45,148 nt of DNA, from IMG/VR virus record IMGVR_UViG_3300031228_000013, positions 1 to 45,148 of that record; one strand, 5' to 3'. The position numbers and the translations under genes were made by a program. Below are positions 186 to 16,165 of the stretch, piece after piece. The notes beneath the pieces were generated by a model. It ran no database searches, was not told where the DNA came from, and worked only from the letters and a program-made list of their open reading frames with translations. Positions within the stretch are counted from its first letter, which is position 1. Each line of letters starts with the position of its first letter. This stretch comes from a virus. Its lineage: Duplodnaviria; Caudoviricetes.

Positions 186-204
186 CGGTCTACAAATAGT
201 CTAC
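186..204 (+). promoter_or_regulatory. Putative integrase arm-type binding repeat (partner at 1-19 / 45009-45027)
   Basis: CGGTCTACAAATAGTCTAC vs CGGTCTACAAATGGTCTAT, direct repeats on either side of the att core, each with two GTCTA units. Confidence 0.6.
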
Positions 205-620: not shown

Positions 621-787
621 ATTATTGGCTTTTGAATTGAATTTAGGGCTATTTCCCGGGCTTTATCCATCCCTCCAACCGCCTCTACTGATGATTTCCG
701 GGGATATATTGTCAGGGTTACTTTCTTGTCTTTAATGGAGGGGCGACCCGATCCGGGTCGCTTTCCTCCGTGTGTTTTCTTTCTCAT
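617..787 (-). CDS. 56-aa small basic protein with GGxRPGSGRP (AT-hook-like) motif; not in ORF track
   Basis: MRKKTHGGKRPGSGRPSIKDKK...; ATGA overlaps with both neighbours. Confidence 0.75.
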   Translation of the reverse strand: MRKKTHGGKRPGSGRPSIKDKKVTLTIYPRKSSVEAVGGMDKAREIALNSIQKPII

Positions 788-1104
788 TTTTTAACTGCCA
801 GAATAAAGCTACCGCAGCAGTTATAAACCTCAATGCCAGTAAACAGGATGTCCTCGTAGGACTTTAAATAATCCCTTGACTGGCCTACAAACCACGCTCC
901 GGCGATTCCTAATGTGTGCTCTGTATTATTAATATTGCCGGGTGTGGCAGCCTGAAAAGAGGCTGAACTATCAGATTCAACCATATCACTCATGCTGTTA
1001 AACCTGGATTTGGTGGTTATAAACAAGTTTTCACGGTTCTTTTTTACAAATGACTTAACGGTTGCCATTGTGATTTTCCGGGGTTGTGTTGCTGTTGTAT
1101 TCAT
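784..1104 (-). CDS. Hypothetical phage protein (start reassigned to ATG 1104)
   Basis: Open frame; ATG lies just downstream of promoter at 1129-1160. Confidence 0.75.
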   Translation of the reverse strand: MNTTATQPRKITMATVKSFVKKNRENLFITTKSRFNSMSDMVESDSSASFQAATPGNINNTEHTLGIAGAWFVGQSRDYLKSYEDILFTGIEVYNCCGSFILAVKK

Positions 1105-1128
1105 AGCTGTTTCGTTTAATTGTTGAAT

Positions 1129-1160
1129 CAAAGATACAGCGTCTAACTTGAATATGCAAA
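1129..1160 (-). promoter_or_regulatory. Bacteroidota housekeeping promoter driving the leftward 1104-201 operon
   Basis: Minus strand TTTG (1160-1157), 20-nt spacer, TATCTTTG (1136-1129). Confidence 0.75.
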
Positions 1161-1345
1161 TATTTTATCAAGTATTTTCAGATTATTTTTTATTCGGAAA
1201 CAAAAAGGTAACATCCGGAAGATTTCTCACCCCTAGGGGTTGCTTTTTTAAGGGACTTTTTTTTATTTCAAATCCCGCCCTTGAAACCCACCCCTGTTCA
1301 CCCGGCGGCTTTAATCTTATCTTTCCACCCTTCAATCCTACTGTT

Positions 1346-1525
1346 ATGGCCAAGTCTAATCAAAACCGACTTATCCACTCATTGTCTAATGCTGGGATAA
1401 GCCCCCATGTTATAGCTCAATTTCTCAAGCGTTCTATAGCAGCCTTAAAGAAAAACAAACAGGGCGCAAAAGCGCAATTCGAAATCGCACAAGCAAAACT
1501 TTTATTATTTCATTTATGCCCTTGA
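1346..1525 (+). CDS. Possible 59-aa hypothetical protein convergent on the repressor
   Basis: MAKSNQNRLIHSL...; weak TATCTTTC element at 1318-1325. Confidence 0.35.
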   Translation: MAKSNQNRLIHSLSNAGISPHVIAQFLKRSIAALKKNKQGAKAQFEIAQAKLLLFHLCP

Positions 1526-1959
1526 CGGCAATCATCCAACTCTTTTTTTAGCCTTTGTATTTTTTCGTCCTGGTCCTCAATGATCCTATTGGCTTTATTG
1601 AGGTTATCGATATAGATATCCAAATACTCAGGGGATGGCTTCTTCTCCTTTAAAAGCCCCTTTCCTACAAGTGTAATATTTTGCTTTATATTTGTTCCAC
1701 GGGAAACATTTCTTTCCCTTTCAAGATCTAGTATATCATCCCCAAACACCCGCCCCCAGTTCTTTAAAAACTCACCCTTTGGTCTGGATTCGCCGCGTTC
1801 ATAATGGCTTAGCTTCACAGATTCCCGCTTAATATCATCTTTTTCAGTAAATCCCAATTTGCGACAAACCGCCGCCTTACCCCCGTATTGCTCTATTAAG
1901 GCCGTCATCACTTCCGATAAGGAAATATTTTTCAACTTTTTCTTTCCTTTTGTTTGCAT
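1510..1959 (-). CDS. XRE-family HTH prophage repressor (CI-like) with C-terminal coiled coil
   Basis: KAAVCRKLG...LSHYERGESRP HTH signature; divergent from the early operon. Confidence 0.75.
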   Translation of the reverse strand: MQTKGKKKLKNISLSEVMTALIEQYGGKAAVCRKLGFTEKDDIKRESVKLSHYERGESRPKGEFLKNWGRVFGDDILDLERERNVSRGTNIKQNITLVGKGLLKEKKPSPEYLDIYIDNLNKANRIIEDQDEKIQRLKKELDDCRQGHK

Positions 1960-1983
1960 GGAAGGAAATATTTATTAGGTTTG
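1953..1983 (+). promoter_or_regulatory. Rightward early (PR-like) Bacteroidota promoter
   Basis: TTTG (1953-1956), 19-nt spacer, TAGGTTTG (1976-1983). Confidence 0.75.
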
Positions 1984-2019
1984 TACACTATAAGACAATA
2001 TAAGACAGAACGAGACAAT

Positions 2020-2217
2020 ATGAAAAACGGCAAACAAACCCAGGTAAAGAAAGGTGTAGGATTTCGGCAAATACGTGAAGTAAAGCCTTCAAGAAAGACC
2101 TATAGCAATGTGGAGATATACCGCGCAAAGAAGCAGGGAGAGGGTGTGGATCTGAAGATTTCAGAGGCAGCAGTTGAACTGATTGAAAGGGGACTTGAAG
2201 CGGAGGGCATCGTATGA
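2020..2217 (+). CDS. Cro-position small DNA-binding protein (start reassigned to ATG 2020)
   Basis: First gene after PR; basic; ISEAAVELIERGL helix resembles ribbon-helix-helix proteins. Confidence 0.6.
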   Translation: MKNGKQTQVKKGVGFRQIREVKPSRKTYSNVEIYRAKKQGEGVDLKISEAAVELIERGLEAEGIV

Positions 2218-2462
2218 CTCGCATAATCCCCATGCGTTCAGAAGGACGCTACGAAAGCAAAGACCTGGAACGCCTGGTAAACGAGCTATACGAACATCAG
2301 CAGCATAAAGAGGTTATGCACGCAAAAGAAGCAGCGGCATTTTTAGGCATCGGCCTTACCTCCTTATATAAGTGCAAAGATATCCCGCATCATACCCTTC
2401 CTGGACTTGAGGGCCGAATATATCTGAAAGACGAATTAATCGACTTCATAAAGCAGCACTAA
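2214..2462 (+). CDS. Excisionase-like HTH (HTH_17/AlpA type) protein
   Basis: MHAKEAAAFLGIGLTSLYK...IPHH...RIYLKDELIDFI. Confidence 0.75.
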   Translation: MTRIIPMRSEGRYESKDLERLVNELYEHQQHKEVMHAKEAAAFLGIGLTSLYKCKDIPHHTLPGLEGRIYLKDELIDFIKQH

Positions 2463-2662
2463 TGACCACCTTCAAATACAGCCTGGGACAAAAAGTATTC
2501 GACAAATGGAGTGATGAATTCACAACTGTAATTCAAAAGAGGGTAGAGTATGGACGTCCTTATTACAGACTAGAAAATGGAAGTATAAGGATTGAGGGTC
2601 AACTGTATGGAGAAGAGGATTTTATTAAACCCATTGAAACTTTTAAACTATCGCAAATATGA
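2462..2662 (+). CDS. Hypothetical phage protein
   Basis: Coupled ORF. Confidence 0.7.
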   Translation: MTTFKYSLGQKVFDKWSDEFTTVIQKRVEYGRPYYRLENGSIRIEGQLYGEEDFIKPIETFKLSQI

Positions 2663-2826
2663 AAAACGAATTTGAATTTTTTCCAATGATTCGACTGGCA
2701 TGGTTTCGGGAGGATCGCGCATTGTTATTTCAGTTTTGGTTCGCCTTCTGGATTGGAAGCTGGTGGGTGGTTAGTGGCACAAGGGCCTCAAGGATAGGAA
2801 ATGAAAAGCGATTTTCTATTCACTAA
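2659..2826 (+). CDS. 55-aa Trp/Phe-rich hypothetical protein; not in ORF track
   Basis: MKNEFEFFPMIRLAWF...; ATGA overlap with the upstream gene. Confidence 0.55.
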   Translation: MKNEFEFFPMIRLAWFREDRALLFQFWFAFWIGSWWVVSGTRASRIGNEKRFSIH

Positions 2827-2916
2827 AATCATTGCGATAGTACCTCCGGCGGCGATAGCATCATAAGCCGGGGGGAATCGCTTAACCCATTGAAAACTTT
2901 AACAAACTATAAAACC

Positions 2917-3176
2917 ATGAAAGAATTAATGTTATTACTCTCAGCGGCATTGCCTGAAGATTTACTGCTATCTCAATTAAAGTCCGCTCTAACTGAATAC
3001 GAGTTAGCCCATCGAAACAAACACGCGGCGGTCTTTCAATGATTTGCATGATGTTCGCAACTAAGGAGGCCTCGGAGAACACGCCGGGCGGAGTTGACGG
3101 GATGCTTTCTCGTATGGACAAAATGGAAAAAGGCATGGGTCTCATGGATGTTAAGGAGCATAATAATAAAGGTTAA
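2917..3176 (+). pseudogene. Hypothetical gene split by an apparent 1-bp frameshift near 3008
   Basis: MKELMLLLSAALPEDLLL...EYELA stops at 3042, while the -1 frame continues PSKQTRGGLSMICMMFATKE...KG* to 3176. Confidence 0.45.
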
Positions 3177-3189
3177 CCCCCCTACCCCT

Positions 3190-3528
3190 ATGGAAACTCT
3201 CAAACAAACAGAAGGTAAAACAGATAATGAATTACTTGCTAATCAGGACTTGATCGATGACTTCATGGGTCGAGAACATTGGCGAATGCACCCTAACCAT
3301 GAATGGGTTTCCTATCACAACGATTGGAACAGGCTCATGCCTGTAGTAGAGAAGATCAACAGCCAGGACGGCTACTCTGCAATTCATATCGACCACGATC
3401 AGGCATTTATCCACTTCAGTGAGACCGAGCGTATGGTTGACTTCCTGAAAGAAGATCACGGCTACTTTGGAATGATCTATCAGGCTGTAGTCACTTATGT
3501 AAAATGGCTTAAAACTCAACATAAATAA
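3190..3528 (+). CDS. Hypothetical phage protein (YHNDWNRLMPVVEKI motif)
   Basis: Start reassigned to METLK ATG 3190; motif common in Bacteroidota phage early proteins. Confidence 0.75.
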   Translation: METLKQTEGKTDNELLANQDLIDDFMGREHWRMHPNHEWVSYHNDWNRLMPVVEKINSQDGYSAIHIDHDQAFIHFSETERMVDFLKEDHGYFGMIYQAVVTYVKWLKTQHK

Positions 3529-3529
3529 A

Positions 3530-3883
3530 ATGGAAACTCTCAAAATCTCCTACCGTGGACACACAATAGAACCCGACTATCGGAATCCTTATTCCAGTAA
3601 GCCTGAATACATGTACTACCCCACAGAAGAAGGTCCAGACCATGACTATGATCTTGTAGGAGAAGATTACAAGTACTGTGGTAACTGCGGATGGGCTGAC
3701 AGCATCGAAGAAGCTAAGGATGCCATAATGGAAAAAATAATGGAGGCTAAGCCTTATCATGTGGTAAAGACAACATTCGGAATGCTGGAGTATTGCTTCC
3801 CATGGCTTTCGGAAGCTACTGGATTTCAAAAGACATGGGGCGGAGAATTGCTTCCTTATGGCCAACCAATCTATAACCCGTAA
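3530..3883 (+). CDS. Hypothetical phage protein
   Basis: Coupled ORF starting METLK. Confidence 0.75.
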   Translation: METLKISYRGHTIEPDYRNPYSSKPEYMYYPTEEGPDHDYDLVGEDYKYCGNCGWADSIEEAKDAIMEKIMEAKPYHVVKTTFGMLEYCFPWLSEATGFQKTWGGELLPYGQPIYNP

Positions 3884-3891
3884 AACAATCC

Positions 3892-4050
3892 ATGGCAACG
3901 TTACCTGAACCGGATTTTGAGGATGAAGAAATCGACGACGATACACCAGATTATTACCTCTGTAATTGCTGTGGGTACACTTGCGTTACAAATCACAACG
4001 GATGGGGGTGCCCTAAGTGTACCGCGCACATGGAACCACAATATTATTAA
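3892..4050 (+). CDS. 52-aa acidic zinc-ribbon protein; not in ORF track
   Basis: MATLPEPDFEDEEIDDD...CNCC...CPKC. Confidence 0.7.
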   Translation: MATLPEPDFEDEEIDDDTPDYYLCNCCGYTCVTNHNGWGCPKCTAHMEPQYY

Positions 4051-4080
4051 AACCTTGGTGAACTAATAAACGCTTGACTT

Positions 4081-4371
4081 ATGGAAACAACTGAAAAACG
4101 CATTTATCTAAACGCAGATCAGGCGAAGTCACTTCTATCTGATCAGGATTTTATACACACTTTCCGCAACCCGCGAGGTATGATGATCGGATGTGATTGG
4201 AGTAAAGAGAAACTTATTCAAGCCATCGACGAAGCGCCGGAAAACCATATTGAAATCGGCGGAGAACTATGTATGCGAATGGGTCACGGATTGGTGATAT
4301 ATATCGACGGTCCTTTATTCGTGGAGGTTGACAAAGACCAAATCAAAAAACTTGAATCTGAACTTTTATAA
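4081..4371 (+). CDS. Hypothetical phage protein
   Basis: ORF within early operon. Confidence 0.75.
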   Translation: METTEKRIYLNADQAKSLLSDQDFIHTFRNPRGMMIGCDWSKEKLIQAIDEAPENHIEIGGELCMRMGHGLVIYIDGPLFVEVDKDQIKKLESELL

Positions 4372-4375
4372 CCCC

Positions 4376-4663
4376 ATGGACCACACAACACGCTTACTAA
4401 ACGCCTCTATCGCCAGGGAAGAAAATAAACATCTAAGATCAGAGTTTAACATCACTCAGGATCTGGCCCTGCAAATAGTGGATCTGAAAAAAGAGCTTCA
4501 AAAGGCACAGGAACTACTCCGGCCCTTCAATGAGCTAGCTGCTGAAGTTCTTTATAACTCAACCTGGAAAGACGAAACCGTGGTATACTTTAATAAAAAA
4601 GAGATCACGCGAACGGATTTACAGGCTGTCTCTGACTACTTCATGAATAAAGCATTTAAATAA
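4376..4663 (+). CDS. Hypothetical coiled-coil protein
   Basis: Start reassigned to ATG 4376. Confidence 0.7.
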   Translation: MDHTTRLLNASIAREENKHLRSEFNITQDLALQIVDLKKELQKAQELLRPFNELAAEVLYNSTWKDETVVYFNKKEITRTDLQAVSDYFMNKAFK

Positions 4664-4671
4664 AAACTCTT

Positions 4672-5226
4672 ATGGAAAATACACAATCAAACGGGAATGG
4701 ATTTGATTTCCTTCCTGAAAATTACGAAGCCCCACAAGGTAACTCAGGTTACATGAAATTTCAGGATGGCGAAAATAAATTCCGCATCCTATCAAAGCCA
4801 ATCATTGGCTGGCTGGACTGGAAAGATAAAAAACCCTTTCGGTTCCGGTTTAAAGATCGCCCGGAAAAGCCTATGGGAGATAAGCCTATAAAACATTTTT
4901 GGGCTTTCCTTGTCTGGAATTACTCTGCCGACGCTATCCAGGTTTTGGAGATCACGCAGGCCACAATTCAAAAACACATTCAAGATCTGAGTAAGGACGA
5001 TGAATGGGGAGCGCCTTTTTACTATGACATCAAGGTAACCCGTAAAGGCAAGGAACTGGATACGGTCTACAGTGTTACGCCATCTCCAAAAAAAGACCTC
5101 TCGGATGAAATAAAGAAAGCCGCATTGGAAAAGTCCGCTAACCTAGAGGCTTTGTTTGAGGGTGCCGATCCCTGGATTGTGACAGGGGAACAAACTGAAT
5201 ACGCTTTTCAGTCCTTACCATTTTAA
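4672..5226 (+). CDS. Putative single-stranded DNA binding/annealing protein (gp32-like phage family)
   Basis: YMKFQDGENKFRIL...FWAFLVWNY...YDIKVTRKGKELDTVYSVTP; C-terminal LPF tail; next to exonuclease. Confidence 0.55.
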   Translation: MENTQSNGNGFDFLPENYEAPQGNSGYMKFQDGENKFRILSKPIIGWLDWKDKKPFRFRFKDRPEKPMGDKPIKHFWAFLVWNYSADAIQVLEITQATIQKHIQDLSKDDEWGAPFYYDIKVTRKGKELDTVYSVTPSPKKDLSDEIKKAALEKSANLEALFEGADPWIVTGEQTEYAFQSLPF

Positions 5227-5228
5227 TC

Positions 5229-6005
5229 ATGTTCGCTGAATATCCTGAATCAAGATTTGTCGCTTTAGATATGGAGCCGCGCGTTGGAAACTTTACCAGC
5301 GGAGAAATCGCGGCCCTCATGTCTAAAGGGAAAGGAAGTCCTTACGGCGCTCCATACTATTCCTACATCGAGGAAAAGAAAATGGAGCGTCGACTAGGTC
5401 GCGTATTGAGGGGGGATGTTTTTGCCCGCCCGCTGACATGGGGGCATTTATGTCAATACAGAGTATTTGATTTACTCGGGGATCAATACACCCCCTGTAA
5501 TAATAAGCCCCTGGATCACCCTACAATTCCATACTGGAAGGGAACACCAGATGCCACCAGGACGGTAGTGGAGCGGAATACTGTGGTAGAAGTCAAATGC
5601 CCCGAGACATTGAAATCATTTTGCCTGATCGTGGACTCCTGGAAAAAAGGCGGAATTAACGAGATCCGTAAAAAGCATAAGGACGGGGATAAATTCTATT
5701 GGCAGATCGTCAGTAATGCTATTCTCACCAAATCAAAATACGGTGAACTGGTCGCATACGTGCCCTATCAATCTGAACTGGAAGCCATCCGGGAAATGGC
5801 GCAAAACTTCGACGGAGAAAAGCAAGCCCGCTTTCTGTGGATCGCCTCGGCTTATGATGACGAATTGCCCTTTGTAAAAGACGGCGGATATTATAAGAAC
5901 CTCAATGTAATGCGGTTTGAAGTCCCTGTCGCTGACAAGATGGCCCTGCATTCCAGGGTAGAGGAAGCCGGAAAAGAATTATCTGACATAAACCTTTTAA
6001 CATGA
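5229..6005 (+). CDS. Lambda-exonuclease/YqaJ-like PD-(D/E)XK nuclease
   Basis: FTSGEI, WG, GTPD, VEVKCP and YWQ motifs in the expected order. Confidence 0.8.
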   Translation: MFAEYPESRFVALDMEPRVGNFTSGEIAALMSKGKGSPYGAPYYSYIEEKKMERRLGRVLRGDVFARPLTWGHLCQYRVFDLLGDQYTPCNNKPLDHPTIPYWKGTPDATRTVVERNTVVEVKCPETLKSFCLIVDSWKKGGINEIRKKHKDGDKFYWQIVSNAILTKSKYGELVAYVPYQSELEAIREMAQNFDGEKQARFLWIASAYDDELPFVKDGGYYKNLNVMRFEVPVADKMALHSRVEEAGKELSDINLLT

Positions 6006-6163
6006 CTACAGAAATCGAGAACATCAGACTAAAGGAAGCGTTAAGTGACCTTATTAACGCCACCAAAAAATATAAAGTTGGCGTTGCCCGAGAAACGCTT
6101 TGGCTCACAGAAAATAAAGTTTATCGAAAAGCTGAAGCCGCCCTCTCCGAAAAGAAAGACTAA
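6002..6163 (+). CDS. 53-aa hypothetical protein; not in ORF track
   Basis: ATGA-coupled, MTTEIENIRLKEAL... Confidence 0.65.
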   Translation: MTTEIENIRLKEALSDLINATKKYKVGVARETLWLTENKVYRKAEAALSEKKD

Positions 6164-6313
6164 ATGACTATGTACGGCTTAAATAAACCCAACAACCCTA
6201 GATTCACCGTTTACTTCTGGAAGTGGGCTGTACTGTCATTCCTTGGATGTCTTTTTATTTTTTTCCTTATCTGTTACATGGCTGCTGCTATTGGTAATTA
6301 TATTTTGAAATGA
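6164..6313 (+). CDS. 49-aa single-TM peptide; not in ORF track
   Basis: Hydrophobic WAVLSFLGCLFIFFLICYMAAAIG; coupled on both sides. Confidence 0.6.
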   Translation: MTMYGLNKPNNPRFTVYFWKWAVLSFLGCLFIFFLICYMAAAIGNYILK

Positions 6314-6591
6314 TGAGACATAATTACATGCAATTTTATTATCAGTGTATGGAGAGTGGGTGTTTGCCTGACAGGGGGTTATGTCATTCAATCGGCGATC
6401 CTAGAAGAAGTGCGATTAATCCAGGGTTGTGGGTTTTTACAAATAAGGACCTGCAATTATTTGAGCCTATAGAACCACAACTGCACTATTGGGGATGTGA
6501 AGATTATGTGTCTTATGATATAACACACGGCTTTACCCCGTTACGACAAACTATCGTCCTATTTCTCGCAGCCATGAACAACGAATTATGA
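6310..6591 (+). CDS. Hypothetical phage protein
   Basis: Coupled ORF. Confidence 0.7.
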   Translation: MMRHNYMQFYYQCMESGCLPDRGLCHSIGDPRRSAINPGLWVFTNKDLQLFEPIEPQLHYWGCEDYVSYDITHGFTPLRQTIVLFLAAMNNEL

Positions 6592-6764
6592 AAAACCGCC
6601 GCTACCAGCCGCAATTCGGAGACCCTGACCCTAGGCCTTTAGTAACATGGAGAGAGGTATTATTTGGTATTCTCTTTCTGTTAATAGGTGTTGCGGGGAT
6701 GGTATGGATAGCTCTACAGGGAGCAGAGATAGATCATAATGTTAATCAGTTTTTGAACCCATGA
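6588..6764 (+). CDS. 58-aa single-TM protein; not in ORF track
   Basis: VLFGILFLLIGVAGMVWIAL; ATGA overlaps on both sides. Confidence 0.65.
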   Translation: MKNRRYQPQFGDPDPRPLVTWREVLFGILFLLIGVAGMVWIALQGAEIDHNVNQFLNP

Positions 6765-6979
6765 CAGTAATGACAGAAACCGAGTTGAAGCCTGAGTACA
6801 CATGGACTCCCCGATTTGGTGTAATGGTCAGCCTTCCGTTAGGATTGATTAATTACCGGGCACTGGAGGAAGCCAGCAAAGGAATAGAAGCTGAGATTGA
6901 AACCGAAACTTCATCCTACAGGAAGGAAAAGTTATTCAGGATAAAGAAGGATATTAAAAAAATACTGAGAGGGGTATGA
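6761..6979 (+). CDS. Hypothetical phage protein
   Basis: Coupled ORF. Confidence 0.7.
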   Translation: MTVMTETELKPEYTWTPRFGVMVSLPLGLINYRALEEASKGIEAEIETETSSYRKEKLFRIKKDIKKILRGV

Positions 6980-7308
6980 GCCAAGCTGAAATACAATTTG
7001 GGAGACTGAACAGGGACGCCGGCATGAAACGCGCTATCGATCACGCTAATGCCGTTGAGCGCGGATGGGAAGAGATGGCCTTTGATTTTTTCACCAATGT
7101 ATTTCTAAAGCACCACAAAGGGACTTTCATGTGTGAGGATTATAGGGCAGCGTGTAAGGGAGTAGTTCCGGATCCGCCATCCCTGAGAGCTTTTGGACAC
7201 ATTATAACCAAAGCAAAAAGAAGGGGATTGATTACAAGGGTGGGGATAAGATCGGTAAAAAATAGCCGCGCTAATTGTGCGCTGGCTACACTATGGCATA
7301 GAACTTAA
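6976..7308 (+). CDS. Conserved-type hypothetical phage protein (winged-helix-like, PPSLRAFG motif)
   Basis: GMKRAIDHAN...FMCEDYR...PPSLRAFG...AKRRGLI. Confidence 0.7.
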   Translation: MSQAEIQFGRLNRDAGMKRAIDHANAVERGWEEMAFDFFTNVFLKHHKGTFMCEDYRAACKGVVPDPPSLRAFGHIITKAKRRGLITRVGIRSVKNSRANCALATLWHRT

Positions 7309-7312
7309 AACC

Positions 7313-7471
7313 ATGAAACAAAAAGCTAAAAAATACCTCCTTGATGAATCCGACCTTGAATGGATTGTTGAGGCCCTTAATGAAGGGTATTCAAAAAAGC
7401 AATTAGCAAAGCAGTATAAAATATCAGTCAGACAATTGAACGCTGAACTGAAAGGAGATAAAGAAACTTAA
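7313..7471 (+). CDS. Small HTH protein
   Basis: LNEGYSKKQLAKQYKISVRQL; start reassigned to 7313. Confidence 0.65.
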   Translation: MKQKAKKYLLDESDLEWIVEALNEGYSKKQLAKQYKISVRQLNAELKGDKET

Positions 7472-7486
7472 CAAATAATATAAATC

Positions 7487-7939
7487 ATGAAAATTTACGT
7501 TGCGTCATCTTGGAGAAACAAATATCAACCTGAAGTAGTCAAAATACTCCGTGAATATGGTCATGAAGTGTATGACTTCCGAAACCCAGCGCCAGGAGAA
7601 AACGGTTTCGCATGGTCTGATATCGACCCTAATTGGGAGCAGTGGACGCCGGGCCAATGGCGCGAAAACCTTGAACATCCCATTGCCTTACATGGTTTGA
7701 AAAGGGACTTCGATGCAATGAAGTGGGCGGAAGTTTGTGTATTGGTAATGCCATCAGGGAGATCAGCACACACTGAAGCAGGCTGGATGAAGGGGGCTGG
7801 TAAAACCGTTTATGCGTTAGTGTTCGACAACTGTGAGCCGGATTTGATGTATAAGGTATTCGATGGTATTTGTGTTTCGATGGAAGAATTGATCGAGACA
7901 ATAGAGACAATTAAAAACTTAGTCAGGGACGCTGACTAA
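7487..7939 (+). CDS. Nucleoside 2-deoxyribosyltransferase-like protein
   Basis: KIYVASSW...D...SGRSAHTEAGW motif pattern of the NDT-like superfamily. Confidence 0.7.
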   Translation: MKIYVASSWRNKYQPEVVKILREYGHEVYDFRNPAPGENGFAWSDIDPNWEQWTPGQWRENLEHPIALHGLKRDFDAMKWAEVCVLVMPSGRSAHTEAGWMKGAGKTVYALVFDNCEPDLMYKVFDGICVSMEELIETIETIKNLVRDAD

Positions 7940-7940
7940 T

Positions 7941-7985
7941 AAGCCGGGGGCCACGTGAGCGTTGAATCTCTCCCCGGCTTTTATT
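7941..7985 (+). terminator. Stem-loop with U-tract immediately 5' of the tRNA-like element (terminator or processing leader)
   Basis: AAGCCGGGG...CCCCGGCTT followed by TTATT. Confidence 0.5.
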
Positions 7986-8202
7986 GACGAGGTGGCGGAA
8001 TTGGTAAGCGGTGGATCTCCTAAGATAAAGTGAAGCCGCAGACGTAATGGGACGTAATCGAGCAACGGCCAGAAATGGCGAACGGATGTTTCACCGGGAT
8101 AGCGGGTTTCGTTCTTACTGAAAAGCAACACGGCTCTTTCCTTAAATGGATTCACGCGAGTTTGCCCATCTATCCATGCAGGTTCGAATCCTGCCCTCGT
8201 CA
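7986..8202 (+). ncRNA. tRNA-Leu-like RNA with a ~135-nt domain replacing the anticodon arm
   Basis: Acceptor GACGAGG/CCTCGTC plus A73; TGGCGGAATTGGTA D region; T arm GCAGG-TTCGAAT-CCTGC; ATGGAT/ATCCAT variable-arm-like helix. Confidence 0.75.
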
Positions 8203-8253
8203 CAAACTTAAAAAAGTATAGGGAATAGACCTCCACTTTTTTAAACTCATGGT

Positions 8254-8871
8254 ATGAAAGCATTTATTCTACATCACGCCAACAGGGCAATCAAAGATTT
8301 TGCATGGGGTCAATATACCGGCGACTTCTATCGTGTGAAAGATGCTATCCTACGAAAGTACGGCAAGGCTGTAGGTTACGACATACAGCATATTGAAGGT
8401 AAGAAGTGTCGGTCGTGCGGCGGAAAAGGTTATCACCCGAGATATTCATATCACCCCCCTTACAATGTTTATGATTACGCAGACTGCTGGCATTGCTGGG
8501 GAGGGTGGTATAAGCAGCCACAATGGATATGCCTTGAAAGAATTGCCTTTGATGGATACATCTTCCACCGCCCATTGAAACGTGAGCTATGTGTAAAGAA
8601 CCCTTTCACAGCGGAGGAACTTGGATGGCAGGTATCAGCAACGCCAATTATTGCCGGATACATAGAACACAATTCCACATGGTTCGGAAAATATGCCATA
8701 GCTATGATAATGATCAATACGCCCGACTTCCAACTGATCTGCAAGCGTATTTTGAAGGAGTGGAAATGGTATTGGCAAAGCAAGCGCGACCGTGTTGTAA
8801 GGCGCTTTAAGAAAAAGGTTGTCGTTAAAATCGCAATAGAAGATTGGGCCGGTGAAGATTTACCATTTTAA
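8254..8871 (+). CDS. Hypothetical protein with DnaJ-like CxxCxGxG zinc finger
   Basis: CRSCGGKG...CWHCWGG; ends EDLPF. Confidence 0.75.
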   Translation: MKAFILHHANRAIKDFAWGQYTGDFYRVKDAILRKYGKAVGYDIQHIEGKKCRSCGGKGYHPRYSYHPPYNVYDYADCWHCWGGWYKQPQWICLERIAFDGYIFHRPLKRELCVKNPFTAEELGWQVSATPIIAGYIEHNSTWFGKYAIAMIMINTPDFQLICKRILKEWKWYWQSKRDRVVRRFKKKVVVKIAIEDWAGEDLPF

Positions 8872-8891
8872 CCTATTACCCACTATAAAAA

Positions 8892-10256
8892 ATGGACTAT
8901 CAGTCTTTCATTGAAAATAAACGCCATTCGATTGGAAACTTTGGGATCAATCCTACTTACCTGCCGGATTGCATGTTTGATTTTCAGAAATATCTGGCTG
9001 AATATTCAATTAAAAAAGGACGTTGTGCAAATTTCATTGATACCGGATTGGGTAAGACACTGGATGAACTTGTACATGCGGTCAATTACATAAGGCACAC
9101 CAACAAGCCGGTTTTAATTATTACGCCTTTAGCGGTCGCATTTCAATTTATTAAAGAGGCTGAAAAGTTTGGGATTGATGATATCGAATACTCCAAAGAT
9201 GGCCGGTACAAGTCAAAGATAGTGGTTTGTAATTACGAGCGGTTAGGATATTTCAGCCCTTCGGACTTTGAATGTGTGATCCTGGATGAATCGTCAATCC
9301 TGAAAAACTTTGAAGGCGCAATAAAGAATCAGGTTACCTCTTTTTTAAAGCGGGTTAAATATCGTTTTCTATTCACGGCCACGCCTTCACCTAATGACTT
9401 CATCGAATTAGGCACAAGTTCGGAGGCTTTAGGGTACATGGGTTATACTGATATGCTTACCCGGTTCTTTACAAATAACGAGGACACAATCAGCCCGCAG
9501 CACATCGGAACTGAATGGATTTTAAAGGGGCACGCAAAGGAAAACTTTTTCAAATGGGTGAGTGGATGGAGTATCTCAATGCGGAAACCTTCCGACCTTG
9601 GATTTGACGATAGTAAATTTATTCTCCCTGAATTAATAACAAACTATCATTCGGTTAAGAATGAAAACAATATGGTTATTAATGGGCAGATCATGCTTAT
9701 TAACACCATCGCCAGAAGTCAATCCGAAATTCAAGCCGAAAACCGGGCAACGATTGAAAAGCGATGTGAGCGCGCTGTAGAATTGGCCGCCGGGCATAAA
9801 ACATCTGTGTATTGGTGTAATCTTAACCCGGAAGGCGATCTCCTGGAAAGTCTGGATAAGAACGCGGTCCAACTTCACGGCAGTATGGACCTGGATAAGA
9901 AAGAAGAAATATTACTAGCCTTCGCCAATCAGGAAATTGATAAGCTAATCACAAAGGCAAAAATCACGGCCTTTGGGTTAAACTGGCAGCACTGCAATCA
10001 TACGGTATACTTCCCGACATTCTCGTATGAGAGATACTATCAGGCTATCCGTAGGTTTTGGAGATTTGGTCAAAAGAAAGATGTGATTGTCGATCTGGTT
10101 TTTTCCGACGGTCAAAAGCGGGTACTAGATTCCCTGCTGGTTAAAACAGAAAAGGCCAATCAATTATTTACCAAACTGAACAGCAGTCTTCACCAATCAT
10201 TTGAGATTAAGTCCAAAGAATTCAACCAAGAAATTAAACTCCCTGTATTTATATGA
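8892..10256 (+). CDS. SF2 (SNF2-like) helicase
   Basis: DTGLGKT Walker A, LDESS Walker B, TATP motif III, QAIRRFWRFGQ motif VI. Confidence 0.9.
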   Translation: MDYQSFIENKRHSIGNFGINPTYLPDCMFDFQKYLAEYSIKKGRCANFIDTGLGKTLDELVHAVNYIRHTNKPVLIITPLAVAFQFIKEAEKFGIDDIEYSKDGRYKSKIVVCNYERLGYFSPSDFECVILDESSILKNFEGAIKNQVTSFLKRVKYRFLFTATPSPNDFIELGTSSEALGYMGYTDMLTRFFTNNEDTISPQHIGTEWILKGHAKENFFKWVSGWSISMRKPSDLGFDDSKFILPELITNYHSVKNENNMVINGQIMLINTIARSQSEIQAENRATIEKRCERAVELAAGHKTSVYWCNLNPEGDLLESLDKNAVQLHGSMDLDKKEEILLAFANQEIDKLITKAKITAFGLNWQHCNHTVYFPTFSYERYYQAIRRFWRFGQKKDVIVDLVFSDGQKRVLDSLLVKTEKANQLFTKLNSSLHQSFEIKSKEFNQEIKLPVFI

Positions 10257-11242
10257 AAGTTTACTCTGTGAAAGATCAGCTTTTGACTGATGATTATTCG
10301 ATTTACAACGGTGATTGTATGCACGTCCTTCCAATGCTACGGGATGAATCGATAGACCTGTCAATCTATTCCCCTCCGTTTGCCGGGCTGTATAATTATT
10401 CTAGTTCTGAAAATGATTTCTCCAACTGTGAAAGCAAAGAACAGTTCATGCAGCAGTATGAATTTTTGATTGCTGAAATCGGAAGGGTAACCAAACCCGG
10501 GCGCATCACTGCGGTACACGTTACCAACATCAAAGATTCCAAAACTGGGGATATGTGGGAGTTCCCACATGAAGTTGTAAAACTCCATCGTAAACACGGA
10601 TTTAACTGGAAAGATCAAATTACAATATGGAAAGAGCCTTTGAAAGTTCGTATGCGTACAATGGTGCGGTCCTTAATGCACAAACTAATTGTTGAGGATT
10701 CGACGGAATGTTTTACAGCTATGCCGGACTATATTCTAACATTCAAAAAGAAAGGCGATAACGCGGTGCCGGTAACCCATCCGGTAGGGCTGTCTGACTA
10801 CTTCGGAGAAACACCAATCCTTCCTGAGATGGTGGAAAAATATGGAACGTTTGATCAACTCAAAAAGAAGTACACCGGGCACACGGATCCAAAAACAAAT
10901 AAGCTATCGCATATTATATGGCAGCGGTACGCATCCAGCGTGTGGGATGATATCCGAATTGACAACGTACTTCCATTTCGGGATAGTAAAGATGAAGATG
11001 ACGAAAAACACGTACACCCCTTGCAGCTTGATGTAATTCAAAGGGTAGTGGAATTGTATTCTAATCCTGGTGAAGTTGTCTTATCTCCATTCATGGGTGT
11101 GGGCAGTGAGGTGTACGGGGCTGTAAGTCTTGATCGGAAAGGTATAGGTATTGAACTCAAAGACAGTTACTACAAGCAGTCGGTAATGAACCTGAAAGAT
11201 GTGAAGCGTGTAAAAGAAAAATCCCAACTACAATTAATATGA
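10253..11242 (+). CDS. DNA amino-methyltransferase (N4-C/N6-A, beta-type order)
   Basis: SPPF catalytic motif N-terminal to PFMGVGS SAM motif; HVHP..LQ; GIELK. Confidence 0.9.
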   Translation: MKVYSVKDQLLTDDYSIYNGDCMHVLPMLRDESIDLSIYSPPFAGLYNYSSSENDFSNCESKEQFMQQYEFLIAEIGRVTKPGRITAVHVTNIKDSKTGDMWEFPHEVVKLHRKHGFNWKDQITIWKEPLKVRMRTMVRSLMHKLIVEDSTECFTAMPDYILTFKKKGDNAVPVTHPVGLSDYFGETPILPEMVEKYGTFDQLKKKYTGHTDPKTNKLSHIIWQRYASSVWDDIRIDNVLPFRDSKDEDDEKHVHPLQLDVIQRVVELYSNPGEVVLSPFMGVGSEVYGAVSLDRKGIGIELKDSYYKQSVMNLKDVKRVKEKSQLQLI

Positions 11243-11271
11243 CCACCCAGTTTATAAAAGGAGGAAAGTAA

Positions 11272-12027
11272 ATGGCTAAAGAGGATTTCTGTTTTACATA
11301 TTACGACGGTGACGCGGCCAGGGACACAACCCACATGAACCGGCTGGAAAGGGGCGCATATCACGATATAGTTATTTCTCAGCGGAAGTTTGGTCACCTA
11401 ACAGGCGCCCAGGTTACGAAGATCCTCGGGCGTGACTTTGATGAATGCTGGCCGGCTATTGAACTGATTATGATTAAGGACGCGGATGGTAAATTTTTTA
11501 TTGAGTGGTTGGATAGGTCTATTTTGAAAATGCAGGCGCATTCCAAAAAGCAAAGCGAGAACCGGAAAGGTAAAACCAAAATTAACCAAACAGGAACCAA
11601 ACAGGAACCAACATTAAACCAAACGCAACCTTTAGAAGATGGAGATGGAAATGGAAATGAAGATGGTATTGAATTAGAAAATAAAAAAGAGTCGCACGAA
11701 AATGATCCACGTGAAACTGATTCAGAGACGTTGGGGGATGTTGAATTCTGGACTTCACAAGTCCTCGATGGTAATGATGCCTACTTTTTGAATATGGTTC
11801 GCAATGCCTCGATCATCCTCAATGGACAACTTGAGAATCTGGCGCGGGATCATCTCGGAAAATGTGCACGGTACAACTGGCATGAGCGCATGACCACACA
11901 GCAAGCGTTCCGGCATAGCCTTCTGAATTACATCACGGAGAATCTTAAAACAGCAAAGGATAAACAAAATGGAAAGCCATCCGTCACACTCGCAGAACTC
12001 CAAGCCCTCAGAAAAGGGGATGTATGA
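11272..12027 (+). CDS. Replication initiator, DUF1376/YdaU-like
   Basis: FTYYDGDAARDTTHMNRLERGAYHDI N-terminus and low-complexity linker. Confidence 0.7.
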   Translation: MAKEDFCFTYYDGDAARDTTHMNRLERGAYHDIVISQRKFGHLTGAQVTKILGRDFDECWPAIELIMIKDADGKFFIEWLDRSILKMQAHSKKQSENRKGKTKINQTGTKQEPTLNQTQPLEDGDGNGNEDGIELENKKESHENDPRETDSETLGDVEFWTSQVLDGNDAYFLNMVRNASIILNGQLENLARDHLGKCARYNWHERMTTQQAFRHSLLNYITENLKTAKDKQNGKPSVTLAELQALRKGDV

Positions 12028-12670
12028 ATTCTTCCATGACGAATTTCAAAGCCTCAGGGCAAAAACCGGCATCCGGCAGTGGGAGCAATTGAACGATCAG
12101 CCTGATTCAGCAAAGGTTATCCACGACCATATTCAATTCATGTGCAAAGAGTGTGATAAGCCCCCGTTCCATGTGGTGGACGCCAAGGTCAAGCAGCGGG
12201 TTATTTCACGCGCAATCGTCGAGGATGGGGATTTCATAGGGCTAAACGCAAAGTTCGTCAGGAAGGCTTTAAACGCCTGGTGGATGGTGAACCGCGACCG
12301 GGTTATGGAGGCGCTGAATGATCATAAGATTGCGGACAAAATCCAATTAACCCCGGAGCAAAGCCGTAAGATCGATGAAATAGCAAACCGGTATATCGCT
12401 GAACTTTTGCAAGGTGGCGGACCAAGGCCGGTTCCCGAGGTTGAGAATGCGGAAAAACAAGGCGCTGAATGGACAAGTGATATAGAGAGAAGGGCAATCC
12501 AGTATCCCAAAACTACACCCGAGCAAGCCGCCGCCCACGAACTCCACCTGGAATACGTCCGCCGGAACTACGACAAGTACACAGCAGAGAAATTATCAAA
12601 CTGGATCCCGGAATCAGAATGGTTAGAATCTCTATCACAGGAAGAAAAAAATCAAATAACAAAAAGATAA
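11969..12670 (+). CDS. Hypothetical protein (possible initiator partner)
   Basis: Long ORF overlapping the initiator end. Confidence 0.7.
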   Translation: MESHPSHSQNSKPSEKGMYEFFHDEFQSLRAKTGIRQWEQLNDQPDSAKVIHDHIQFMCKECDKPPFHVVDAKVKQRVISRAIVEDGDFIGLNAKFVRKALNAWWMVNRDRVMEALNDHKIADKIQLTPEQSRKIDEIANRYIAELLQGGGPRPVPEVENAEKQGAEWTSDIERRAIQYPKTTPEQAAAHELHLEYVRRNYDKYTAEKLSNWIPESEWLESLSQEEKNQITKR

Positions 12671-13239
12671 TGGATGAGATAAAATTTGCTAACGGTAATT
12701 TTCTCTATGAGGAAAACGGTTCATATTTTATAAGGAATAAGGAAGGTCAAATCGAAAAGGTTGTTAAAAATAGATTTAAACACAACCAAATCGTAAAGAC
12801 GGCCACCGGGAAACATTTCTCACACAAGTCATTTACCAGATTGATTGATCCCACATACATTCCTAGTCGTGGCTGGTGTTATGGTGAAAATTATATTTCA
12901 AGAAACAGACGGGGTGGCGGATGTGGGTTTTCTTTTGAGGAAGATATGTATGAAGAGATTACAAATCCGGCAGATATACTTTATGCAGAGAGATTTAACC
13001 TTCAGATACAAATTGATTATTTGAATAGCTGCCTGAAAAAATCTACTGAAACGTTAGAGAAAATTGAATTTGCCCTTTCGGTGGCCGTTCCTGATTATAC
13101 AAAAGTAATTGATGCCTGTAATCAATGCGGCGAACTTTATACACATAAGAATGAGGGGAATGTAAATGCCGCTATCTGTAAAAATTGTCGAGTATCACAG
13201 GAAGAAAAACAAAGGATAATTAAACACATAAAACCATGA
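12670..13239 (+). CDS. Hypothetical protein with C-terminal CxxC...CxxC (start reassigned to 12670)
   Basis: TAATG coupling; CNQC...CKNC. Confidence 0.7.
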   Translation: MDEIKFANGNFLYEENGSYFIRNKEGQIEKVVKNRFKHNQIVKTATGKHFSHKSFTRLIDPTYIPSRGWCYGENYISRNRRGGGCGFSFEEDMYEEITNPADILYAERFNLQIQIDYLNSCLKKSTETLEKIEFALSVAVPDYTKVIDACNQCGELYTHKNEGNVNAAICKNCRVSQEEKQRIIKHIKP

Positions 13240-13430
13240 AACGATTATTTAAAGTAGTGTTCGACTCAAACGAAAAGGACGGAGATTTTATCACAAATGC
13301 CGACTCGGTAAATGTTATAGCTGACGATGCGGAGAAAGCAATCCGAAAAGCCAAAAAGCATGTCGAGGAAAATAAACTGAATTACGTAGTCAATTCGGTA
13401 GTGGTGATTGGAACTATTGATGTGGACTAG
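13236..13430 (+). CDS. Hypothetical phage protein
   Basis: Coupled ORF. Confidence 0.7.
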   Translation: MKRLFKVVFDSNEKDGDFITNADSVNVIADDAEKAIRKAKKHVEENKLNYVVNSVVVIGTIDVD

Positions 13431-13462
13431 AAGGATAATAATCTCTTAAACCAGTAGAAGAA

Positions 13463-13711
13463 ATGACAAAGCTTGAACAGGAAATTTACCAATCCCTTTT
13501 AGTGCATGAGGGGATTGAAGGAGTTGAGGATGGAAATCCGATCAGCGCCGGAATATGTGAGAGTCACGCCAAAGCCGCCGCCGAAGTAGCAAAGAAGTAT
13601 ATCGAAGGGGCCTTGGAATCATGCGCTGTACTAACATATATGCAGCGCCAGCATGGGAATTGGCCACGGATTAAAGAAAAATGGCTTAAAGAAAATGGCG
13701 TAACAGAATGA
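13463..13711 (+). CDS. Hypothetical phage protein
   Basis: ORF within operon. Confidence 0.7.
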   Translation: MTKLEQEIYQSLLVHEGIEGVEDGNPISAGICESHAKAAAEVAKKYIEGALESCAVLTYMQRQHGNWPRIKEKWLKENGVTE

Positions 13712-13869
13712 CCCGCTCATCTCAGAAAGAACAATCAAAACCGGTTAAGGTATTATCACCGGAAGAAAGAGTAAAAGAAGCTCTAAAGGCTATGGGCCAT
13801 TACTTTGAACTGGATAAAAAGCAGGTGAAGTTTTATATCAGGCAGGTGGAATTAAGTGGAAAGTTATGA
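13708..13869 (+). CDS. 53-aa hypothetical protein; not in ORF track
   Basis: ATGA overlaps at both ends. Confidence 0.65.
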   Translation: MTRSSQKEQSKPVKVLSPEERVKEALKAMGHYFELDKKQVKFYIRQVELSGKL

Positions 13870-14120
13870 AAGCGAAGAAGAAAATAGAAATCACAGAAAA
13901 GCAGGCGATGCAATTTAATCGTATGTTGGTAGTGTTGAAACGCATAAAAAGATACCAAAGTCCTAACCGATTACGGCGGACATCCCAGAGAACATGGGGA
14001 CTTGATTTCGAGGAAGCTTTAGAGATGTCTTACGAGAATATACAAACTGAAGCCGCCGCAGGTATTAAAGGAATTAAACGCATTGAGATATGTACTGCAT
14101 CAACCATCCCGACAGAATAA
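13866..14120 (+). CDS. Hypothetical phage protein
   Basis: Coupled ORF. Confidence 0.7.
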   Translation: MKAKKKIEITEKQAMQFNRMLVVLKRIKRYQSPNRLRRTSQRTWGLDFEEALEMSYENIQTEAAAGIKGIKRIEICTASTIPTE

Positions 14121-14542
14121 CGGAAGGAACAACGGATAAGTGTGCCTCTTGCAACCGGATAGAACGTAAAGCCGCCGCCGTCCGTCCTTCGGATAATAAC
14201 TCACCCATTGAAAAAAGATCCGCTAAAGGTAAGGAAGTAGACCGTAAGTATCTCACAAGGTTAAGAACTTGGAAGCGCGGGAAAAAATGTGTTGCCAATT
14301 TCATCCATGAATGCTCCGATCAGATCACCTGCCACCATCAGCATGGCCGTAGTGATGATGCCTTTCACGATGAGGAAGCCGCCGAAAAGGGTATAGTCCT
14401 GACGCTGGATGAAAGATGGTGGCTGCCTGTATGCCTTGACGCTCACCGGTATATTACCGATCATCCGGACTTCGCCCGTGAGCACGGATACAGTTATTCA
14501 CGATTATCGGATTTAGTTCCAATGAAAATGAGAAACGAATGA
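14090..14542 (+). CDS. HNH/His-Me finger nuclease-like protein (NinG/Ref-like)
   Basis: C...C...CHHQHGR...WLPVCLDAH pattern. Confidence 0.55.
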   Translation: MYCINHPDRITEGTTDKCASCNRIERKAAAVRPSDNNSPIEKRSAKGKEVDRKYLTRLRTWKRGKKCVANFIHECSDQITCHHQHGRSDDAFHDEEAAEKGIVLTLDERWWLPVCLDAHRYITDHPDFAREHGYSYSRLSDLVPMKMRNE

Positions 14543-14946
14543 GAATATATAACGCCATTGTTTTACTGGACGAAGTTGGCGACCCGTTAAAGCATTTCGC
14601 CACCAAAGTTGAAAAGCAAATTAAGACGATTGAAACACGGATGAAAAACATGATCCCGGAGGGCGATATAGTTATCTGTTGTGGTGCGGAGAGCATGACA
14701 GTAAATCGTTGTAAGGCATTATGTATCGTCTATGTCGCCAAAGGCAGAAGGATGACTGCCGAAGATGAAACAGCAGCCTGTATTGAGGCTACAGACAAAC
14801 AGGGTAATGTAAGATGGGCGTTTCCTTTATCAAATTGGAGATACTTCAGCCGGAAGTTTGAGTTTTCAAAGCGGTATGTCTCAGGGTCGTTTCAGAGTAT
14901 TTTTCAAATCAGCATCCCGGACGATGTGCAAATAATAAACGAATGA
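14539..14946 (+). CDS. Hypothetical phage protein
   Basis: Coupled ORF. Confidence 0.7.
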   Translation: MRIYNAIVLLDEVGDPLKHFATKVEKQIKTIETRMKNMIPEGDIVICCGAESMTVNRCKALCIVYVAKGRRMTAEDETAACIEATDKQGNVRWAFPLSNWRYFSRKFEFSKRYVSGSFQSIFQISIPDDVQIINE

Positions 14947-15041
14947 CCAAGCGCCCCGACAACGAATGCCTCTGTGGCCGGTCGAAAGATAACCCGAAGC
15001 CTTCCCGGTGTCATTGGTGTCCATTCAAGATAAAAAAATGA
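14943..15041 (+). CDS. 32-aa Cys-containing micro-protein; not in ORF track
   Basis: MTKRPDNECLCG...CHWCPF; ATGA-coupled at both ends. Confidence 0.5.
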   Translation: MTKRPDNECLCGRSKDNPKPSRCHWCPFKIKK

Positions 15042-15121
15042 ACCCTTTCACAACCATTTGTTTAATCACCCTCCTGATATTGGCCTATGCCTTTTGGGAT
15101 GAAAACTTTAGAAAGGAATGA
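15038..15121 (+). CDS. 27-aa TM micro-protein; not in ORF track
   Basis: MNPFTTICLITLLILAYAFW; ATGA-coupled at both ends. Confidence 0.5.
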   Translation: MNPFTTICLITLLILAYAFWDENFRKE

Positions 15122-15978
15122 ACCCAAAATTTTACATAGACCAACAGGGGATAGTTAAGTACATAGCTGACTGTCCAGAAGAACCGCAAGTCTGCATGGC
15201 TTACGTGATTAAGTCGTGCCTTTATACAGCGTGTACATGCGATCCATTGCAAAAACAATACGAGCGCGACCTCCAAGCCGCAAAAGATTCGGCTGTGCCT
15301 TTTGTTGCGGGATCGATCTGTAAAATAGGCGGGCTGAATAATGCAAAGCCCGACTCCCTCCACCCCCTTCCTGATAACTACCGAGTAGAGGTGAAAGAAG
15401 TTAAAACCGGAGGAAGAAGCGTTAAAGATGCTAATGGTATCCCTTACGATTACCACACCTATTTTGAGAAACTAGCCTACATCCTCCCAACAAAAGAACC
15501 TATGAAAGAATCCTGCACTTATCCGCATTGTAATTGTGTGAACTGTGATTGTGACGATGTGAAAGCAGACGAAGAAAGCGGAATGTATGAAGATGGCTGC
15601 GCCTGTGGTTGGTGCGGGAAAAAGTACAAAGTAGATTTCATGATCCCGGATGAGTTATGGGAGAAAATTTCTAGCCATAATCTTCTATGTGGTCACTGTA
15701 TTATTGATCGGATAGAACGCCTGAATCAATTCGGAGCATTCCAATTAACAGATTTAGGAGACACAGCAGGGCCAGTTATAGAGGGTCAGGAGGAACTAAC
15801 CGTTGCGGATATAAAACAATTCATTGACCGCGAACTAGGCGGCTACAAAGTTGTCCATATAGGACACGCGCATAAGGTTATTGACAGACAATTCATATAC
15901 GAATCCGATGTAACAAGCCTTGCCTTGGAATTATTACAAGCGTTCAAAATAACCCGTAGAGATAGTGGAAAAGACTGA
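15118..15978 (+). CDS. Cys-rich mosaic hypothetical protein
   Basis: Several Cys clusters incl. CGWC...DELW...LLCGHCI. Confidence 0.7.
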   Translation: MNPKFYIDQQGIVKYIADCPEEPQVCMAYVIKSCLYTACTCDPLQKQYERDLQAAKDSAVPFVAGSICKIGGLNNAKPDSLHPLPDNYRVEVKEVKTGGRSVKDANGIPYDYHTYFEKLAYILPTKEPMKESCTYPHCNCVNCDCDDVKADEESGMYEDGCACGWCGKKYKVDFMIPDELWEKISSHNLLCGHCIIDRIERLNQFGAFQLTDLGDTAGPVIEGQEELTVADIKQFIDRELGGYKVVHIGHAHKVIDRQFIYESDVTSLALELLQAFKITRRDSGKD

Positions 15979-16165
15979 CAACTTCCCCGGAACTGGAAAA
16001 GATGGTTATTACGCTCACCAACTGGACAAAATCCACGACCTGACGCATAAGAACAATACTCTTCAATCAAGAATAGCCGAACTAGAATCCGATAACACCG
16101 CCCTCCGTCAGAGAATAGAGAAAATGAACGACTACCTTAGAAATAATGGTATGGAGCCGTTTTAA
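15965..16165 (+). CDS. Small coiled-coil protein
   Basis: Heptad LQSRIAELESDNTALRQRIEKM. Confidence 0.65.
   Translation: MEKTDNFPGTGKDGYYAHQLDKIHDLTHKNNTLQSRIAELESDNTALRQRIEKMNDYLRNNGMEPF

Follow-up and report, generated by a model that had tools for sequence, protein, structure and literature searches.

A 217-nt gene of a temperate soil phage (7986-8202, plus strand, in the window, i.e., the whole 45,148-nt stretch of viral DNA analysed here) has the outer frame, or shell, of a tRNA-Leu around a long middle that lacks an anticodon stem-loop. On balance, we read this gene as giving rise to a host-processed, likely leucylated carrier RNA that does not decode and whose exchangeable insert would act on a host factor. 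The parts of this reading are not equally firm. That a discrete processed RNA is made from the element is probable; its leucylation, judged from the nucleotides that it carries, is somewhat favoured, and so is the existence of a host target proper to the insert, while a defence system as that target is a tentative suggestion. The element is among the largest members of a widespread, uncatalogued phage gene group, being the seventh longest of 88 cluster representatives that range from 101 to 230 nt, a range bounded by the search span.

The outer frame of the element can be followed nucleotide by nucleotide on the plus strand. The 5' strand of the acceptor stem (7986-7992) forms seven of seven Watson-Crick pairs with 8195-8201, and the 3' strand is completed by the discriminator A73 at 8202 (8195-8202 together). 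U8, G9 and the D arm occupy 7993-8011, with A14 at 7999, A15 at 8000, G18G19 at 8003-8004 and A20a at 8006, as numbered by hand against the class consensus. A47 and U48 (8176-8177) are unpaired as in tRNA-Leu, and the T arm (8178-8194) carries U54, U55, C56, and A58. The acceptor stem, discriminator, U8-G9 with a Leu-type D loop and T arm had all been proposed in a first-pass annotation of the sequence and are confirmed here, together with its tandem GACGTAAT, which the window contains at 8041 and 8051 only. The D stem is weak, with two Watson-Crick pairs (C11-G24 and G12-C23) and G10 opposite G25. CCA is not encoded, and is likewise missing after six of the seven host-type tRNA-Glu ends among the matches listed. 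A loose shell pattern finds this element alone in the window and nothing in 100 dinucleotide-shuffled windows; neither this pattern nor ARAGORN reveals another tRNA gene in the window, and ARAGORN without its intron option makes no call on the element itself. The annotation had left room for a known Rfam family, none of which matches at gathering score; at E<=10 the T arm alone scores (14.4 bits). Compared with a decoding tRNA-Leu, the element has the 7-bp acceptor, the T arm and the D loop with G18G19, and it lacks a 5-bp anticodon stem with a 7-nt loop after the D arm.

Regarding the middle, folding energies were computed with the tRNA core held fixed and the D stem either kept or left free. 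It had been proposed that a single domain of about 135 nt, folded as one long irregular helix, replaces the anticodon arm only and that ATGGAT/ATCCAT forms the variable-arm helix. All the complementarities named for this fold are present, but their arrangement is 4-8 kcal/mol worse than a model with two expanded arms (-54.6 versus -58.5 kcal/mol with the D stem kept, -54.3 versus -62.0 kcal/mol with the D stem free), and the ATGGAT/ATCCAT helix would consume U48, the Levitt partner of A15. The earlier inner fold is probably wrong, and both the anticodon and the variable arms appear to be expanded. A third fold, pairing 8013-8018 with 8148-8153, reaches -58.2 kcal/mol and lies within 0.3 kcal/mol of the two-arm model when the D stem is kept, and a model B, in which one helix continues into the T arm, reaches -57.3 kcal/mol.

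In the two-arm model, domain 1 (about 85 nt, 8011-8095) takes the anticodon-arm position, with a closing stem predicted by constrained folding between 8010/8011-8015 and 8090-8094/8095 and with no anticodon loop; this stem of 5-6 bp is not dominant in the ensemble. Two hairpins are predicted inside the domain, a small one made from the GACGTAAT repeat (8042-8055, pair probability about 0.8) and a GAAA-capped one (8068-8079, pair probability 0.93-1.0). Domain 2 (79 nt, 8097-8175) takes the variable-arm position as an irregular helix of 6+4+5 bp, 8097-8112 with 8156-8175, enclosing 43 nt. This is the best-supported inner helix (pair probabilities 0.57-0.8; z -1.35 for the domain alone), and it ends two bases before the T stem, like the variable arm of a true tRNA-Leu. 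The middle of 166-171 nt is not more stable than its shuffles (z +0.95 and +1.28; -0.52 for the whole element), and no aligned family was found for the insert that could test the predicted fold by covariation. The strands of the earlier long helix, 8021-8038 and 8131-8144, fall in separate domains and are partly unpaired, so that they could still pair with each other, and the helix may survive as an inter-domain contact. A Lys(CUU)-like anticodon stem-loop (8107-8123) lies inside domain 2 and competes with the variable-arm helix.

The element belongs to a class of long Leu-type shells that was collected by scanning viral contigs for a D motif with a T loop 91-211 nt downstream. The scans returned 79 loci, plus at least 120 of about 290, and the loci hold 162 distinct elements, of which 99 with a D-to-T distance of at least 55 nt are taken as long elements; nearly all of these are on phage contigs. 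Because the search patterns themselves demanded the bases of the D and T loops, these are not evidence. The acceptor is closed, with six or seven of seven pairs, in 90 of the 99 (seven pairs in 85), using 53 different 5' strands, while random 7-mers close in 1.4% of cases; the nine elements without a closed acceptor, several of which are tandem tRNAs, were left out of later counts. Among the features that were not imposed, A73 is found in 73/90, U48 in 85/90, and a GACGC D strand in 71/90 elements. A73 is missing in 17/90 class members versus 1/57 short controls. Across the class the D-to-T distance varies from 55 to 184 nt and the inserts of the 90 elements fall into 76 clusters, none of which shows a canonical anticodon arm.

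In an enlarged set of 101 elements in 88 clusters, with at least one tandem artefact (L318) kept in, 35 clusters have exactly two bases between the end of the last predicted arm and the T stem, versus 12.4 in shuffles (p ~3e-9); the same two-base geometry is seen in 38/55 short controls of tRNA-Leu size. The first arm, by contrast, starts at random positions and not at a fixed one. The predicted folds thus indicate that variable-arm geometry has been retained in the class and anticodon geometry lost. A73 is weakly associated with this geometry, as it is found in 29/35 clusters with the two-base spacing versus 38/53 without it. Conservation of insert length and covariation among homologues had been put forward as a test of the first-pass annotation. 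Neither the length nor the sequence of the insert is kept among relatives, while the shell does covary; because of this covariation, the variability of the insert is regarded as the defining trait of the class and not as decay.

Shells of this type are also found in named genomes. A genome scan gave 16 matches, 13 of them long shells, with seven in records titled Bacteroidota or Rhodothermaceae; one long shell is in Bacteroides phage BS-TP2, where it carries no annotation. The gathering score of RF00005 is passed by 8 of 40 other long members tested, and not by the 217-nt element. Allo-tRNAs have an acceptor of 8 or 9 bp together with a T stem of 4 or 3 bp (as described in part of PMC5389517), while the element has the 7/5 arrangement; in the accessible text of a review that covers allo-tRNAs, the word 'phage' does not appear (PMC7609411). 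Unusual arrangements were also encountered during the scans. L362 (~415-625, plus strand) shows a shell with a D-loop insertion, an expanded middle and an imperfect acceptor. In L001 (1290-1525, minus strand), two shells with middles of 60 nt and about 30 nt stand in tandem, one of them with the unusual D variant of the element (AAGCG). In L228, two long shells in tandem are preceded, at a distance of about 220 nt, by a Type II hammerhead ribozyme (401-475).

Some inserts are found intact on different shells. One insert of 121-124 nt is carried by three shells that differ in their acceptor stems and have two T stems between them, and in its three sequences six predicted pairs are altered on both sides. 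Another insert is found on two shell types and contains a possible pseudoknot pair with three pair types. Elsewhere, a single shell type houses different inserts. The inserts of the class are slightly more stable than their shuffles (mean z -0.67, with 9/90 below -2), and they contain 14 hairpins of the GNRA or UUCG type versus 6.5 +/- 2.8 expected. No non-tRNA Rfam family was found inside the inserts of 40 loci tested out of about 100. Inserts are presumably swapped through recombination within the D- and T-loop sequences, which are near-invariant, and the single-strand-binding-like and exonuclease-like proteins encoded in the window (4672-6005) could drive such swaps. A gut-phage-type insert family represented by L183, L194, and L206 (alignment A1, columns 64-68 with 96-100) likely contains a pseudoknot, one pair of which occurs as three pair types.

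As for the element itself, no close DNA relative of its insert was found in annotated phages, where the matches are limited to the shell ends, nor in plasmids or viral contigs. Among 41 matching metagenome contigs, the element is present in L313 only, where it is identical to the window. A 27-nt match in 1/401 genomes lies in apparent coding sequence and was taken as chance; L330, with the most similar shell and a common 12-mer, and L188, with a stretch of 23 nt, have the best local scores out of 100 and were not counted as homologues. In the soil metatranscriptome runs X3 and X4, a 222-nt contig aligns without loose ends to 7997-8192. It runs unspliced from the D loop to the T arm and stops near both predicted termini, which gives a weak hint, read from contig sequence, of a discrete RNA made by a relative of the element; contigs cannot reveal the ends, strand or level of an RNA. 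The X3 and X4 contigs agree in length, in depth (2.5) and in their differences, and may amount to a single data set. In both runs, cover is missing from the element's flanks and over most of 1-20000, which is not evidence because the flanks of the relative may differ.

The differences listed for this RNA contig, 24 extra letters and three substitutions, are within 8010-8045 and none is listed from 8046 on; a further three substitutions have no listed position. The listed change is confined to domain 1 and the edge of the D stem, and the variable-arm domain is kept. The GACGTAAT hairpin has one base changed and one pair broken. Read by hand, the changes break the helix of the first-pass annotation in register and permit an 8-bp pairing to the same 8137-8144 strand, and they are compatible with both alternative folds.

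Maturation of a tRNA involves RNase P, 3' trimming and CCA addition. The element is co-oriented with the genes on either side of it in the rightward operon of this temperate phage, and host RNase P would cut its 5' end from the early/middle transcript, the trailer would be trimmed and CCA added. As regards charging, the sections of an E. coli review that deal with leucine identity list A73, A15-U48, G18G19, A20a, G18:U55, G19-C56, and U54:A58, and describe the anticodon arm as dispensable for leucylation (PMC9976931). By sequence comparison, this full set is present in the element. LeuRS would then charge the RNA through these conserved determinants, and EF-Tu may shield its 3' end; the product would be unable to decode and would display two RNA domains. 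The same sections of the E. coli review report no correlation between variable-arm folding and leucylation (PMC9976931), hence the geometry kept by the class may serve folding only, whereas for Aquifex LeuRS the variable arm's orientation is presented as a determinant in the part of that study consulted (PMC2377443). The loss of A73 in 17/90 members and its weak association with the geometry suggest that charging is not universal in the class. The insert would be replaceable, as seen in other class members, by the presumed recombination route; finally, and with the least support of all the steps, it would bind a host protein, most plausibly a defence component. A search for a target of the insert or a link to defence gave none. 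The first-pass annotation had offered a possibly leucylated mimic or a tRNA scaffold among its options, and these are supported.

A broader extension of this reading is doubtful at present. Phages of Bacteroidota and others would run a modular RNA-effector system in which a leucine-tRNA chassis, selected for LeuRS recognition and not for decoding, is the cassette slot for swapped domains, each domain being a charged, EF-Tu-protected anti-defence aptamer or decoy and the 217-nt gene being a two-domain member. If true, this would be the RNA counterpart of the accessory anti-defence proteins of phages, and if the inserts are effectors, they would form an untapped natural library of RNA aptamers on a ready-made expression scaffold.

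The main rival to a carrier RNA with an active insert holds that the tRNA shape is itself active, as a decoy or sink for factors that bind the elbow or acceptor (tRNA-attacking nucleases, LeuRS, EF-Tu), with the middle as tolerated filler that offers no cleavable anticodon. While improbable, it would account for a strongly conserved shell around a hypervariable middle (76 insert clusters in 90 elements) and for an insert in the element that is no more stable than its shuffles. Against it, some inserts stay intact, with compensatory changes, across different shells, tetraloop hairpins are enriched in inserts, and a filler of 170 nt is costly if 30 nt would do. The element does have the Lys(CUU)-like stem-loop, but such loops are at chance across the class (4/76 versus 3.0).

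It is less probable still that the gene is cis-acting punctuation, where RNase P and 3' processing would divide a polycistronic early mRNA and control how much is made from the downstream gene, with the RNA as a by-product. The co-oriented position between genes with an ATG 51 nt on fits this, as do the ORF starts at most 60 nt downstream in 49/90 class members and the 65/90 members without another tRNA call in their locus of 0.7-3 kb (a tRNA is nearby in the other 25/90). However, the shell is missing upstream of all 13 relatives of the downstream gene examined (33-56% identical), a minor contig of run X1 shares the stretch 8152-8210 and then runs into a different flank, and conserved inserts are unnecessary for processing alone. 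A Leu-type shell is likewise absent from the 78 loci of the relatives of the upstream gene, so that in relatives a shell accompanies neither of the two neighbours.

A decaying tRNA-Leu into which random DNA was inserted is very unlikely. The weak D stem, with G10 opposite G25, an insert that is unstructured by folding energy and the lack of a close DNA relative in the collections scanned would be expected from decay, but the acceptor and T arms are perfect, 85/99 long elements have seven of seven acceptor pairs with varied sequences, and the RNA relative has kept its variable-arm domain. The argument of the first-pass annotation against simple decay gains from the covarying shell and these perfect arms. 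An intron-containing tRNA that is spliced to a normal one is largely refuted. The ARAGORN intron option calls a tRNA-Lys(ttt) interrupted at position 32 by an intron of 144 nt, and this segment has a U before it and G as its last base, a pattern shared with group I introns. This call is mismatched to the Leu body, on which the spliced loop, read by hand, would carry A32 and G37; no group I or II Rfam family matches at E<=10, and the RNA contig of the relative is unspliced. To our knowledge, the smallest group I introns are about 200 nt, well above 144 nt. The same option overlaps 73/90 class members with scattered anticodons, including a stop. This is a trap for annotation, as most members are miscalled by intron-aware tRNA finders as spliced tRNAs whose anticodons are arbitrary. 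Resemblances to the group I R, S, and Q motifs were set aside, since the order of the motifs is wrong. A rescue RNA of the tmRNA type with leucine identity, which the first-pass annotation had listed, is suggested by tRNA-like ends around a long middle and by the helix that runs into the T arm in model B, and is hardly credible given C3-G70 instead of G3-U70, no tag-like frame in three translations nor one common to the class, and neither an ARAGORN tmRNA call nor an Rfam tmRNA match.

Stable tRNA-like RNAs of phages are known already. T5 RNA1 and RNA2 (AY543070, 30501-30644 and 32959-33083) are annotated as 'tRNA-like stable RNA with unknown functions' and measure 144 and 125 nt versus 217 nt for the element. 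Like the element, RNA1 combines a D arm of Leu type with an expanded arm where an anticodon arm would be, an acceptor-like stem, and a variable hairpin that ends two bases from the T stem, i.e., a tRNA frame with an expanded middle and no anticodon arm; the T arm of RNA2 is near-identical to that of the element. In contrast, the T5 RNAs belong to a cluster of tRNAs in a lytic E. coli phage, and the element is a lone shell in a temperate genome, outside any tRNA cluster. The discriminator of RNA1 appears to be U when read by hand, and similarity between the inserts was not seen, with no T5 row among the best 20 of 299 blastn matches. The T4 species 1 and 2 RNAs (rnaC and rnaD; NC_000866; 139 and 119 nt) are described, in the relevant parts of three papers, as small stable RNAs from the tRNA region with an unexplained function (PMC9697503, PMC12685909, PMC3014915). 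A perfect T arm, like that of the element, closes the rnaC stretch, but the annotated rnaC and rnaD stretches have no Leu-type D loop. The GenBank coordinates of rnaC appear shifted, the strand that pairs with its 3' end being in the rnaD stretch (L324:209-347, read by hand).

Among cellular and artificial RNAs, bacterial class II tRNA-Leu (RF00005) shares all the outer-frame and leucine-identity nucleotides with the element and has a variable-arm geometry like the predicted one, while the element differs in its 217 nt, its lack of an anticodon stem-loop and its score below Rfam gathering. tmRNA (SsrA) also has tRNA-like ends around a long internal region; the element differs in retaining the D arm and in having no Ala identity, no tag frame, and no Rfam or ARAGORN match. 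In the engineered tRNA scaffolds of Ponchon and Dardel, foreign RNA replaces the anticodon arm, and acceptor, D and T arms are enough for processing and protection, according to the portion of the article available (PMC3753655). As presented there, the scaffold is artificial with one insertion site, whereas the element is natural, has a Leu frame and two expanded arms. No description of the wider class was found in the literature searched, which excludes most subscription papers, the original T4 and T5 RNA work included. New here are the fold with two arms, the variable-arm geometry shared across the class and the hint from RNA. With the element and about 100 counterparts, the T4 and T5 RNAs become part of a broad class and are no longer oddities; this class keeps leucine-identity bases and variable-arm geometry, drops the anticodon arm and exchanges inserts.

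The window is a temperate siphophage-like genome that encodes an integrase (43333-44652) and has its head and tail genes on the minus strand; an early/middle operon runs rightward on the other strand. Its ends overlap by 126 nt (1-126 versus the last ~140 bases) and a contig of run X1, possibly the run from which the window comes, joins them into a circle; the genome is circular and probably complete despite a completeness estimate of 72%. The 3' end of a tRNA-Glu adjoins the integrase (45119-45148, minus strand) and is the probable attachment core. Among 401 genomes sampled from the phylum to which G001, a Draconibacterium record, belongs, 11 match it with at most one mismatch over 28 nt, and the three matching host-type loci checked are all tRNA-Glu. 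A Bacteroidota host, as presumed in the first-pass annotation, is likely from these matches, the genomes compared being all from one phylum; the best terminase matches are only about 34% identical and give no pointer to the host.

The element is located 46 nt 3' of a nucleoside deoxyribosyltransferase-like gene (7487-7939) and is followed on the same strand by a 205-aa gene without a name. A predicted leader hairpin with a loop of 20-22 nt and a U-rich run (7941-7985, plus strand; z -2.84 for 7915-7990) directly precedes G1. No sigma-70 or TANNTTTG promoter site was found on the plus strand from 6740 to the element, an antisense ORF (7919-8263) has no PHROG, Pfam or homologue match, and antisense targeting of the phage's own genes is not indicated, with 10 shared 10-mers versus 14 expected and none of at least 11 nt. 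A methyltransferase, a sulfotransferase-like and two glycosyltransferase genes are clustered on the minus strand between terminase and portal (34860-38494), possibly as a module for virion or DNA decoration. At the end of ORF 7487-7939, the stretch 7921-7937 reads AGTCAGG-GACGC-TGACT, an 8-bp hairpin that joins the commonest acceptor strand of the class directly to the D 3' strand and this to a partner strand, and may be a collapsed shell or chance.
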